Source: Mustelus asterias | Lineage: Eukaryota | Direction: 5' to 3' | Length of the DNA stretch: 64,000 nucleotides | NCBI RefSeq assembly: GCF_964213995.1 | Contig: NW_027590261.1 | Span: 186,001 to 250,000, forward strand | Translations under genes and position numbers: made by a program | The notes under the pieces: model-generated | Databases searched by the model: none | What the model saw: the letters and a program-made list of their open reading frames with translations, nothing else | What the model was told of the DNA's origin: nothing | Part shown: positions 2,481 through 18,336 of the stretch, piece by piece | How positions within the stretch are numbered: position 1 is the stretch's first letter | Layout of the letters: every line of letters begins with the position of its first letter

Positions 2481-3562
2481 GAGAGCTAGGCGATGATAGG
2501 GATCTAGATGAGTATACAGCTTGTAGGAAGGGACTTAAGAAAGAAATTAGGAGAGCAAGAAGCGGTCACGAGAAGGCCTTGGCAGGTAAGATTAAGGAGA
2601 ACCCTGAGGCGTTCTATAAATATGTGAAGAGTAAAAGGATGAGATGTGAAGGAATAGGACCTATAAAATATGAAGGTGAGAAAGTCTGTACAGAACTGGA
2701 AGAAATAGCAGAGGTGCTTAATGAATATTTTACCTCGGTATTCACGGTGGAAAAAGACATGGGTGGTTGTACTACAGGACTGAGGTGGACTGAAAAGATT
2801 GAGTATGAGGACATTAAGAAAGAGGATGTGTTGGAAATTTTGAATAGCATCAAGATAGATAAGTTGCTGGGACCGGGTGGGATGTACCCCAGGTTACTGT
2901 GGGAGGCGAGGGAAGAGACTGCAGAGCCTCTGGCGATGATCTTTGCATCATCGATGGAGACGGGAGAGGTTCTGGAGGATTGGAGGATTGCGGATGTGGT
3001 TCCTATATTGAAGAAAGGGAATAGGGATAGCCCAGGAAATTACCGACTGGTGAGTCTAACCTCAGTGGTTGGTAAGTTGATGGAGAAAATCCTGAGGGAC
3101 AGGATTTATGAACATTTAGAGAAGTTTAGGATGCTCAAACATAGTCAGCACGGCTTTGTCAAAGGCAAATCGTGCCTTACGAGCCTGGTGGAGTTCTTTG
3201 AAAATGTGACTGAACACATTGACGAAGGAAAGGCGGTAGGTGTGGTTTACATGGACTTCAGCAAGGCATTCGATAAGGTCCCCCATGCAAGACTTCTCGA
3301 GAAAGTGAGAGGGCATGGGATCCAAGGGGCTGTTGCCTTGTGGATTCAGATCTGGCTTGCCTGCAGAAGGCAGAGAGTGGTTGTAGATGGGACTTTTTCC
3401 GAATGGAGGTCGGTCACCAGTGGATTGCCCCAAGGATCTGTTCTGGGACCCTTGATGTTTGTCATTTTCATAAATGACTGGATGAGGAAGTGGAGGGATG
3501 GGTTGGTAAGTTTGCCGACGACACGAAAGTTGATGGTGTTGTGGATAGTTTGGAGGGATGTC
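2481..3562 (+). mobile_element. CR1-clade LINE fragment, ORF2 reverse transcriptase
   Basis: ORF contains WRIADVVPILKKG, NYRLVSLTS, QHGFVKGKSCLT, YMDFSKAFDKV and GLPQGSVLGP. Frameshift after FIND; truncated at both ends. Confidence 0.9.
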
Positions 3563-4478
3563 TGCCTGGGTATTGACAATACCAGAATAAATAATAAGCA
3601 TCGTCGGTATAGGTGCAGATTAAAGTGACATCTTCTCCCTCTGTCTGTGTGAGTGAGGATTCCCGCTGAGTAACAGAATCTCCATCGTTCAGATCGAGAA
3701 CACAAGGTTAACAAACAAAAGTCATTGATTAAAAGTTCACTTGAAGCAAGGGTGAAAAATCAGTGTAACATAAAAGAAGGTATTAAATTCTAACACATTC
3801 ACTCCAACTGATCTATCTCCCCTTTCACAATCCCTCAGAGAATCCTCCCTCTTGCCTCATCTCAAATACCTCTATCCCTTTCTACCTCAGCGGGTTCTCT
3901 AGTTTGCCCTCAAATGCATCGTTACTCCTCTCCTCAACAGTTCATTGTGTCAGTGTGAGTCACTTCTACAGAACTCTTTCAAAAAAAGTTTCTCTGTAAT
4001 TCCCAGTTGATCTTTTTGTTTCACTTAGATTTATGGGACACAGATATGTAATTCTCCCCAGATGGAATCATCCTCTCCCCGTCCAGCACACTAAATCTCT
4101 TTGATTTGCTTTATTATTATTTAAATTGATTTGATCATCATTGTCCAGAAATCAGTCAGATTACCTGATTGTCTTCTCGTCCAGAGAGAGAGTAATCATA
4201 ATTTTTATAATGCTTTCTGATAGCTCTCATCTTCCAACCCTGGTACCATCTCTTTAAATCGCCTTTGCTGTGCGCTTTTAGAACCTGTTCTCCAAAAGAC
4301 CAAAGCCACAAAGATTCATTTGTGCTCTAAGGCAGGTCTAATACTTGTTTAACACGAAAGTCCTGCTTTTCAAACTTATTCCTCCATAAATTAAACTCCC
4401 TTTTACTCTTTTTCAAGTTTCAAACTTCTTACCGACAATGAATGTCACCCAGAAAACAGCGAGAAGGGAGCTCCGCAT
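3561..4478 (-). pseudogene. TCR alpha/delta-type V pseudogene (leader 4478-4433; 5' half of V exon 3694-3561)
   Basis: 46-nt leader MRSSLLAVFWVTFIV+G|gtaag. V exon reads (D)LNDGDSVTQRESSLTQTEGEDVTLICTYTDDAYYLFWYCQYPGR and stops at the CR1 boundary. Acceptor is mutated to CG; no YYC or RSS. Confidence 0.85.
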
Positions 4479-4638
4479 CGCTGCTGCTGCTCCTGGATTC
4501 CCGAGACTTGTGTCTCCGAAAGTTGCAGAATATCGAACGAGATAAAGCTGAGAGCAGTGGATGTCACATCCCACAGAATCAATGGGAGGAAGAGCTGAGA
4601 TCACTGGATCGAGAATTAAGAGAATATTAGATAACACC

Positions 4639-5146
4639 TGTGGTGAACCATCGTTGGTTCCCACTAGGTAGTACTGAGCCAGGGTCTTGCCAGTACTACG
4701 AGTCTGTATATATGTTGCTGTTGGGGTTAGGGATGGGTTGTTCTACTTGTTCCATACTCTCTGTATCGTTTTCCTTTTTTTTAACGACGAGAGTTTAATT
4801 AATAGTAAATAAAATTGATGCGCGATATTACTCACGAGGCTTGAGATGCTCAAGGAAATAAAGGCTTTTATTTACTATTACAACGAAGCTACCATATATA
4901 GTACACGATCCCAGACTGAGGGGTCCCAAACAGAGCAGTGACCTTTATACCTCTCCCAGGAGGCGGAGCCCGACTGGGATGTACCATAATAACTATAATA
5001 CAGGTGTAACAGCCCAACCCTAACCCCAACAGTAACAAATAGAACAACCCATCCCTAACCCCAACAGCAACATATATACAGACTCGTAGTACTGGCCAGA
5101 CCCTGGCTCAGTACTACCTAGTGGGAACCAACGATGGTTCACCACA
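4639..5146. mobile_element. 508-bp TG...CA element with 113-bp terminal inverted repeats and 5-bp TSD; right part resembles a solo LTR on the minus strand
   Basis: 4639-4751 is the reverse complement of 5034-5146 (2 mismatches). ACACC at 4634-4638 and 5147-5151. Minus strand has TATAAA near 4945 and AATAAA near 4868. Confidence 0.85.
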
Positions 5147-5301
5147 ACACCATCTGCTTATTGGCTTATTGCTGACAGAGTCTTCAGGTGGTATCCAATC
5201 ATCCCGTCGGCTCTACCCTAAATAGAAATGACTGTCTTCTTGAACCCGGGTCAAACCATTCGCGCAGGAGGAAACTTAATGGAGTTGTAAATACTCGCTG
5301 A

Positions 5302-15840: not shown

Positions 15841-16374
15841 TTTCGGGTAGCTTTGTTTGTCGAGTTTGTCAAACTCTGTTGTCACCCTTTGAATTATTTG
15901 AATTAATTTCCAGTCATTTGATAGCGACAAGGAGGTTTACAAAAAATGAGAGGTTGGTATAACAGAGAGACGGAAGCAATGAGACAGAGTTATGAGGAAA
16001 GTCGCATAAGACACAGAAGGAACCAGAAAATGCGATTCTTCACAGCTCTCATTTATTGGCGGGGAATATCCATCAGTTCCGGCAGAATAGCCAATCCTGT
16101 CTCTGGGAAATGCCCCTCAGTTTCTCAAAAAATAAACCCAGACTATAACAGGGGCTACCCTTTACACTGGATTGGAATCACCGGCAGAATTAGAGCATTT
16201 TGTTACTTTGTATCGAGATGTATACACGGAAACCATCTGTTCTCCATGCTCCTTACTGATTATAATGATCTTGCTGCCCGGCGGGTCCATTATTAAATGT
16301 TAACCATGTCATCCAGTGGTTATTTTTAAACCCTGACTTTTGAGCTAATCTGTATTTACGTGACATGAATGAGT

Positions 16375-16657
16375 GGCAAAACTTCAGTGTTCCAGGCTCA
16401 TTTCGAATTGACAATTCGGGAAGGACAGTGTGGACTGGACTGCCGTTACTTGATAATCTACACTACCCCAGCTCTCCACTGGTACATGCAGTCTTCCGGG
16501 GAAGCTCCGAGATATTTGCTGAAGAAATATAGCTTAGGGGGTGAAGAAAGGTCCCCAAGCCGAGGTTCTCTGCAGATTTGCTGAAGGGAAACAAAACAGT
16601 TCCTTTATATCTTCTGTCGAATACTGCCGTGTATTTCCGTGCGATGGAGACACATAT
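16375..16657 (+). pseudogene. Inverted, degenerate TCR V pseudogene
   Basis: SVFQ...EGQCGLDCRY...LHWYMQSSGEAPRYLLKKYS, a frameshift, then RFSADLLKGNKTVPL...SNTAVYFRAM (second Cys>Arg) and a degenerate heptamer CACATAT at 16651. Confidence 0.75.
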
Positions 16658-17839
16658 GGAGCGGATCCAGGAGACGAAACTCCCCAGAATGGGTGTTCCA
16701 GTTGGTGGCCAGAGGATGACGCTGTCACACCGATAAATAGGGACAAGAATTAAACTCAGTGGGAGTCACAGGAATCTTCCGAAAAGAACAAAATATAACC
16801 CCCCACAAGAAGAGGTGAGGGACACTTGCGGAATTGTATTAGTTGGTTTTAACTCGCGTACATAATTAAACTCGCCGTTATAAATCTATTTGATCTATTT
16901 CGTTGACTTAGTGTTTTGAAGCTGTTTCCATGCCTCTCTGTAACATTAAACAACTCTTCCTCATCTCCCCTTTTAGATTTCTGGAGCCTTTGGCCCGAGA
17001 CCAGTTCTCTGGTTTTTTTTGATCAGACTGTGCTGTTGCGTCCGAAACAGTTTATGAAAAATGAACAGATTTCAGAACTCATTGACTTTGATCATTCAAT
17101 TGAATTTCACAATGTTTCCCAAACAGTATTCAAATATTCATCTGATTTACAGAATCAAGGAGCAGCGACAAACAGATGAACAAGCCAGATATGATAAGAA
17201 GTTTAATGCTACCCTGGTATCAGGTGGAGACAGTCAGGGAGATGTGGAAATTGGCTGCTCGGATTTGTTTGAGAAATCAAAGTCACAACTTTATGAAATG
17301 TGTTCAGGGTGTGCAAGCTGTCTGGAATGTAGCAATAGTGATCAAATAAACGCTATGAACAGCTCACCCTCAAAGGCCCCCAGAAACTGAAAAGGGAGAT
17401 GGAGCGAGTGGTGTTCAATATGGTAAGCAGGCATGGAAAAAGAAGGAAAAGGACAAATAGGGACTTCGGGATCAGAGGACGTCACACAAACATGGAGAAC
17501 TGTCCGTCTGCTGTGTGTGTGGCGCTTCACGGCGAGGTTTGACGGATGTTTGGGATTTTATCACCCAGGTCTGATTTTAGAGGAAAACAGAGTTGATTAG
17601 CAGGAGAAGGGACGATTTAATTGACACATTCATTATGTGATGGACTTGTCGGCCTAAAACGGTTCTGCAGTTTGTTTTCTCGGCCTCTCCTGGAAACAGT
17701 TCGGTGACAGTTGATCCGAGGTGAATATGGTTTCCTGTCGGTTTGTGTTTGAGCGGCTGACAGCGCCGCTGCTCATTGTGGCTGCATCTGCCAGAGGTTC
17801 TATACAGCAGCGAGGAGCTCTGACTTATCTTGCTGAGAC

Positions 17840-17878
17840 AGTTTTTGTACAGGACTCAGGCTGCTTTCCATCACTGTG
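17840..17878 (-). promoter_or_regulatory. 23-spacer recombination signal sequence
   Basis: CACAGTG (17878-17872), 23-nt spacer, ACAAAAACT (17848-17840). Confidence 0.95.
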
Positions 17879-18336
17879 AGGCTGAAAGCGCAGTAATACA
17901 CGGCCGCGTCAGACAACTGCAGATCCGAGATAGTCAAACTGATGGATTTCTTCGGGGTTTGGAGGTCAGTCGAGAAACGGATTTTCGCAAAATCTGCTTT
18001 ATCTTCATCACCCCCCGAGTACTTCTCCAGTATGTACTCGGGCTGGGAGTCTGGATGCTGTCGATACCAGTATAAATAATAGCTGGTTTCTGCAGTATCA
18101 TAGTTGCAGTTTAATGTCACCACGTCTCCTTCTGGCTTAACATCTGAGGACAGCGGCTGAGTGACAGAATCTCCATGGGTCAGACCTGGAAAATATGTTC
18201 AAATAGATAAAGAAAAGAGTGACGTGACTCAACAGTAAGATTCCACCCCAGTTTTGGAAATGAGAAAACTAACGTGATGCCCAGAAATACCTGTTAGAAA
18301 TGCCCCCCACACAATCCAAATGACGAGTATCTTCAT
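17879..18336 (-). CDS. TRAV: Intact T-cell receptor alpha/delta V gene segment (leader 18336-18291, 105-bp intron, V exon 18185-17879)
   Basis: MKILVIWIVWGAFLTG|LTHGDSVTQPLSSDVKPEGDVVTLNC...YLYWYRQHPDSQPEYIL...RFS...LTISDLQLSDAAVYYCAFS. GT/AG splice sites, in frame, both Cys and the Trp conserved. Confidence 0.93.

Follow-up and report, generated by a model that had tools for sequence, protein, structure and literature searches.

By the rule that runs through published accounts (PMC12227049, PMC6795676, PMC2275272), shark T-cell receptor (TCR) loci are translocons and shark immunoglobulin (Ig) loci are clusters. In the elasmobranch antigen receptor complex, TCR alpha/delta variable (V) exons are scattered between IgM clusters (Flajnik et al. 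2025, PMC12227049), and on white shark chromosome 27 (8.2-17.1 Mb) such Vs lie scattered over megabases in both orientations. The main text of that paper calls TCR alpha/delta a translocon and argues that the complex is paralogous to the major histocompatibility complex (MHC), its Table S1 gives one delta constant (C-delta) model each for stingray and catshark, each then followed by C-alpha, and a review (PMC6795676) likewise describes the TCR alpha/delta genes of cartilaginous fish as a translocon; salmon, by the account in PMC8559430, has one TRDC. The stretch considered here, called the window, is 64,000 nucleotides of Mustelus asterias DNA, positions 186001-250000 of a 570-kb contig (C229) without undetermined bases (N) in a genome of 3.68 Gb, and the protein relatives are those of cartilaginous fish. 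The window represents one of the copies of a cassette spread by segmental duplication, in which TCR alpha/delta Vs and tRNAs are found together with a damaged copy of EMC4 and with zinc-finger (ZNF) genes on the flanks. The V-tRNA-ZNF arrangement, which an earlier note on this DNA had flagged, is real, but it is ordinary passenger structure in a known antigen-receptor complex. What appears to be new, pending expression data, is a multi-unit TCR delta system detached from two TCR alpha loci; the scattered Vs themselves were already described in the main text of PMC12227049.

The constant genes that could serve the Vs were located, as J-delta/C-delta and J-alpha/C-alpha units, on contigs that share amplified modules with the window. 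With the delta-type constant region of a sawshark chain as query, and all 70 of 70 candidates scored, 19 C-delta Ig exons were found in the genome, each with a transmembrane exon; three of them, belonging to different units, are on a single contig (C71). All 19 genes have open Ig, hinge and transmembrane exons, the hinge exon having been located by a splice-site scan after a PAM30 search missed it. These constants are of conventional delta type and 80-100% alike. Fourteen of the Ig exons are distinct, a count that takes in two divergent copies, and thus require at least seven loci even if every pair is allelic in a diploid. Their closest models are eight labelled Mustelus asterias (80-97%), possibly from the same genome and hence not independent, and one sawshark chain. 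Diversity (D)/J1-region DNA lies upstream of C-delta in 18 of the 19, the exception being on a 34-kb contig. All four annotated delta units contain upstream Vs, five joining (J) segments and a C-delta, the repeated V-D-J-C layout of a cluster-type locus, and in two of them an IgM cluster lies within 85 kb upstream. One such region (L069-L082, C71:7.06-7.19 Mb) holds within 130 kb an IgM cluster, a cassette of the new antigen receptor TCR (NAR-TCR), VH-like Vs, a D-J-C-delta unit, more Vs, a tRNA, an EMC4 copy and a ZNF; two recombination signal sequences with 23-nt spacers (23-RSS) are stacked there behind the supporting V. In the delta units L183 (C71:11023481-11023933) and L187 (C119:553406-554005), a V with a 23-RSS stands 150-330 nt before J1, and no D with both signals was detected there; in the L183 region an IgM VH (C71:10999006-10999300) runs straight into a J motif, as though the two had been joined already in the germline.

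The alpha genes are elsewhere. TCR alpha has two loci, at C71:18370000-18432000 and C546:137500-242100, which are paralogous but differ clearly in their constant domains; they carry 34 and 140 J-alpha motifs, respectively, the C546 array being internally tandem-expanded, and ZNFs lie upstream of both. No C-delta was found in the 60 kb that precede the J-alpha array on C71 or in the 57 kb that precede the one on C546, nor any C-delta match on C546. A canonical single TRA/TRD translocon, with one D-J-C-delta block directly 5' of J-alpha/C-alpha, does not fit 19 C-delta genes of which none was found within those distances. At C546:120800-121300 and 137500 there are 12-RSS sites and a remnant of the D-delta region (80% over 82 nt), 16 kb upstream of the J-alpha array; no C-delta was found by that remnant in the stretch examined, which contains a 200-N gap. 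A search with Pfam PF09291 (TCR-alpha constant) gave nothing over the cut-off. DAD1, a usual neighbour of C-alpha by the account in PMC12698447, was dropped as a marker: an intron-bearing DAD1 is at C7:74231286-74233588, on another large contig than the C-alpha genes of C71 and C546.

The resemblance to described systems is partial in each case. The elasmobranch complex of PMC12227049, as set out in its main text, likewise has Vs scattered among IgM clusters, and NAR-TCR and VH-like Vs near C-delta, but it differs from the M. asterias arrangement of 19 C-delta units with J-alpha/C-alpha at two loci of their own. Shark Ig miniclusters (as described in PMC12227049 and PMC6795676) share the repeated V-D-J-C unit, and the delta units here lie beside IgM clusters and are co-amplified with them; the delta unit differs in having five Js and several unrelated Vs, with hundreds of further Vs outside any unit. 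Marsupial TCR mu, as portrayed in PMC2275272, also derives from delta, is arranged in tandem clusters and is bordered on one side by C2H2 ZNF genes; it is, however, a separate isotype with VH-like Vs only, while the M. asterias units have conventional delta constants and TCR-type Vs. The newt Pleurodeles (by the account in PMC12698447) likewise has two TRA loci and a TRD that is detached from TRA and duplicated; the newt has one or two TRDC, on another chromosome and without D, as against at least 7 and up to 19 C-delta here, which share their modules with IgM. The literature searched, whose coverage is incomplete, contained no report that sharks have more than one C-delta gene; further papers may give C-delta copy numbers.

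Judged by its sequence, the delta chain of this shark's receptor is likely to be built from many clusters, as shark antibodies are, and not from one locus. In its fullest form the proposal would be that TCR delta has become an Ig-like multi-cluster system of at least ten expressed D-J-C-delta units, freed from TCR alpha, co-amplified with IgM clusters and served by hundreds of Vs over tens of megabases; we advance this tentatively, at slightly less than an even chance. Were it true, few known V(D)J targets would be as large, and T cells would need exclusion at the level of clusters. Seven to 19 complete delta units would break the translocon rule for TCRs and would make segmental duplication a route by which cluster and translocon layouts can turn into each other. 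The paralogues differ in sequence, so that three questions could be tested within one animal: whether RAG joins segments that have megabases of ZNF and IgM DNA between them, by what means a T cell is restricted to a single delta unit, and whether a delta locus detached from alpha escapes deletion.

Within positions 3561-18336 of the window lie five V loci, one intact (17879-18336) and four broken, four of them pointing left and one right (16381-16690), just as the earlier note had them. The intact TCR alpha/delta V, which with its signal spans 17840..18336 on the minus strand, has a split leader (18291-18336), a 105-nt GT-AG intron, an open V exon (17879-18185) with Cys23, Trp41 and Cys104, and a 23-spacer RSS (17840-17878) of the form CACAGTG-23-ACAAAAACT. 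Against PDB its single-domain matches are mostly TCR alpha/delta chains, although multi-domain antibody constructs score too. A 21-row tree places it on the TCR side of an 86/93 split, nearer to TRAV/TRDV than to Ig V; it groups there, with moderate support (87/86), with Vs of horn shark, sawfish and skate, and stands apart from NAR Vs and from the NAR-TCR supporting V. The supporting V-delta of NAR-TCR has no leader exon and sits behind a NAR V-D-J, and this identity is ruled out for the intact V by its leader and its separate position in the tree. TAILV, or VH-delta, has an IgH-like V sequence; VH-like and IgM VH sequences form a 99/97 clade, and the window Vs, lying outside it, are not of that kind.

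The intact V belongs to a family of 39 copies, the same set by protein and by DNA search, that are 93-100% identical, the next DNA match being at 79% (40 of 345 candidates were scored in the DNA search, and fragments may be missed). Among the 39 there are 32 distinct exons and no stops, and 37 are fully intact, copy L176, which lacks Cys23, being counted as broken. Over the 308 nt of the exon the family shows no indel, compared with 14 over 690 nt of flanking sequence (p=0.006). Diversity is 0.125 in complementarity-determining region (CDR) 1 and 0.162 in CDR2, against 0.034 in framework region (FR) 1, 0.030 in FR3 and 0.052 in the intron, and pN/pS is 1.89 for CDR and 0.60 for FR. Nurse shark germline Vs are also described as highly similar to one another (PMC5931798). 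An orthologous family has been kept in horn shark, sawfish and skate. The intact copies, the absence of exon indels and the CDR-focused variation lead us to regard the family as likely to be used. Contigs of four sequencing runs (X1-X4) were compared over window positions 16200-18700; two contigs of X3 lack the intron between leader and V, removed at GT-AG, and there are none such in X1, X2 or X4. The intron-less contigs suggest transcription of the V family, X3 being a run that is not on record as RNA. The lack of stops and exon indels in the family, together with J/C units on contigs that share amplified modules with the window, makes a pure orphon V field, one of the options of the earlier note, seem less likely.

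The cassette itself is about 18 kb long, and its V-tRNA-V-EMC4 order is collinear, at 96-99% identity, in five of the six paralogous places compared; the sixth has only its right part. An EMC4 copy lies on the same strand within 25 kb 3' of 8 of the 39 copies of this V, and the modules thus appear to have been shuffled and not copied as one fixed unit. In the genome as a whole, the best 150 of 1992 V candidates were scored and all 150 matched, and the 65 contigs with matches to the four queries add up to at least 67 Mb, a sum in which haplotype duplicates are counted.

The EMC4 of the window had been taken for a housekeeping gene that deletional joining to a J further left would excise. It is a frameshifted duplicate, one of about a hundred copies: exon 2 (229..351, minus strand) is followed just left of the window by an exon 3 with a 1-nt deletion that shifts the frame, exon 1 (1633..1700, minus) differs from that of the parent (C71:20.307 Mb) by a 21-nt deletion and substitutions, and C229 yielded no last coding exon, so that a functional gene is ruled out. 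EMC4 exon 2 matched in 103 of 105 candidates on 47 contigs, with 13 of the copies on C71, and the EMC4 Pfam family has 137 matches in the genome. The parent, the copy with conserved residues, is at C71:20.307-20.335 Mb, 1.9 Mb 3' of a C-alpha gene and hence outside any join from upstream Vs; excision of the broken window copy would cost nothing. Some other copies (for example C71:14381172-14385488 and C87:1181677-1185992) retain exons 2 and 3 as well as the last coding one, with matches free of stops. No report of EMC4 amplification was found in the literature searched, EMC4 not being among the terms used, and a text search of the main text of PMC12227049 found no mention of tRNA, zinc finger or EMC4.

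How the first V of the window came to lie beside EMC4 is suggested by the delta units. The family of that truncated V is found, intact, 27-35 kb 3' of 13 of the 19 C-delta genes, and behind that V an EMC4 copy lies within 60 kb at six of the 19. The V-EMC4 junction of the window thus presumably goes back to the 3' side of a delta unit, a place normally taken by J-alpha. A block of C-delta and its 3' V would have been joined to the 5' end of EMC4 without the J-alpha/C-alpha block, after which IgM cluster, NAR-TCR, V, D-J-C-delta, EMC4, tRNA and ZNF modules would have been copied and shuffled by unequal exchange. Joining of the intact V by RAG would then span more than 180 kb and proceed by deletion or inversion, and the EMC4 copies, tRNAs and ZNFs would be bystanders. 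We consider it probable that the window is such a cassette copy in an expanded complex and that its intact V joins at long range to one of the 19 J-delta/C-delta units or of the two J-alpha/C-alpha loci, with which its signals are 12/23-compatible.

A number of observations weigh against this explanation and the multi-cluster proposal that goes with it, and several of them favour a neutral by-product of segmental duplication, in which use is confined to one delta unit and the Vs near it, and the window V is transcribed but never rearranged, a functional orphon. A D with both 12- and 23-RSS was found in only two of the four annotated delta units. Variation among 18 of the 19 C-delta copies (a 315-nt copy left out) is near neutral, with 38 nonsynonymous and 15 synonymous variants and a ratio of 0.82, and the open C-delta frames may reflect youth, while EMC4 copies decay in the same cassettes. 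In the V family the contrast between CDR and framework in N/S is not significant (p=0.28), silent diversity is also high in CDR2 (pS 0.154), and the CDR signal could be due in part to gene conversion or mutability. No V-D-J or V-J join of the family was seen in the run contigs, from runs not recorded as RNA; X3 holds only unrearranged V sequence, one of its contigs reading through the RSS of a family member into germline flank. The earlier note's remark that no TCR D, J or C is visible in the window extends, by J-motif scan and search, to all 570 kb of C229, where the sole real one of three J-like motifs is an IgM JH; wherever a V copy and a C-delta gene are found on one contig they are at least 200 kb apart, and C229 is unplaced, its linkage to C71 being drawn from common modules. 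A wholly neutral origin nevertheless seems unlikely to us: 37 of 39 V copies are intact without an exon indel while neighbouring Vs and EMC4 are broken, the variation of the family is concentrated in the CDRs, and its orthologues are kept in three other cartilaginous fish.

That the copy numbers are largely artefacts of assembly, from uncollapsed haplotypes or misjoins, is a good deal less probable and has little claim on our belief. Most copies are on unplaced contigs, some V exons are identical, and several C-delta pairs, the nearest ones, are 99.1-99.8% identical over 4.5 kb, in an identity matrix of 17 of the 19 copies that leaves out the two divergent ones, and may be haplotypes, which also tells against a large number of delta units. 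Yet C71 alone holds three different C-delta units and 13 EMC4 copies, the distinct C-delta exons call for at least seven loci, the 570-kb contig contains no N, and 242 of 312 placed contigs of run X1, possibly from the same sample, are less than 99% alike, with many variants.

We find just as improbable the earlier note's own model of a locus edge or an ancestral relic like the extended MHC, with EMC4 constraining rearrangement and RNA polymerase III (Pol III) genes opening or insulating the Vs: tRNAs do recur beside V/EMC4 modules (C229 at 126-143 kb and 395-441 kb; C71:7.17 Mb), one tRNA of the window is intact and the main text of PMC12227049 argues for MHC paralogy, but EMC4 is a pseudogene copy, four of the five tRNAs are relics, intact V copies examined on C90 have no tRNA in 20 kb, no tRNA lies within 20 kb of the parent EMC4, and ZNF blocks stand on both sides of the cassette, left of EMC4 included, so that nothing is boxed in between a housekeeping gene and a ZNF cluster. 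Long-range joining within a large locus, the other half of that model's edge hypothesis, fits best; an edge with a protected housekeeping gene does not. As for the relic, the region belongs to a published antigen-receptor complex, yet the cassette is a recent duplicate (96-99%).

The four broken Vs comprise a truncated alpha/delta V (3561..3683, minus), cut off by a reverse-transcriptase fragment at 2348..3560 (plus) that we take to be from a long interspersed element (LINE); a pseudogene at 5302..5872 (minus) with leader, V exon and 23-RSS, its V part (5341-5872) bearing a frameshift directly after the leader, near the start of the V exon; a V stub (6515..6592, minus); and the inverted pseudogene (16381..16690, plus), frameshifted and without a usable RSS. 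At least five tRNA genes or pseudogenes had been claimed between the Vs; one intact gene and three relics have tool support, and the fifth was seen by eye only. The intact tRNA-Arg(ACG) at 9240..9312 (plus) is the only one to pass both ARAGORN at default settings and Rfam (57 bits). Two tRNA-Val(CAC) relics (about 12235-12283 and 13438-13510) lie in a tandem duplication of about 1.2 kb, 78% identical (11181..13899, no strand assigned); they align with an intact Val tRNA elsewhere on C229, at 93.5% over 62 nt and 97.6% over 41 nt, and one scores 22 bits with Rfam, under the cut-off. A relic with a B box at 7249..7339 (plus), presumably Pro-like, was found by relaxed ARAGORN only and not by Rfam, and a possible relic at 7899..7971 (minus), which we take to be Arg-like, was detected by neither ARAGORN nor Rfam.

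On contig C229 as a whole there are 16 tRNA calls and 38 ZNF blocks; an IgM cluster occupies 538-554 kb, and additional TCR Vs lie at 3-11 kb and at 445-478 kb. In the window, a C2H2 ZNF cluster of several genes extends over 24954..61803 (no strand assigned). A 508-bp insert with 113-bp terminal inverted repeats (98%), at 4639..5146 (no strand assigned), is found in some cassette copies and is missing from the copy on C108. A retroelement-like insert, presumably Tx1-like, lies at 584-1241 inside EMC4 intron 1, where the alignments of all five paralogous cassettes break. Positions 22200-23460 are a microsatellite-like tandem array with units of about 16-18 nt, and at 28700-31700 stand two near-identical reverse-transcriptase/endonuclease open reading frames, an inverted pair that we assume to be Penelope-like.

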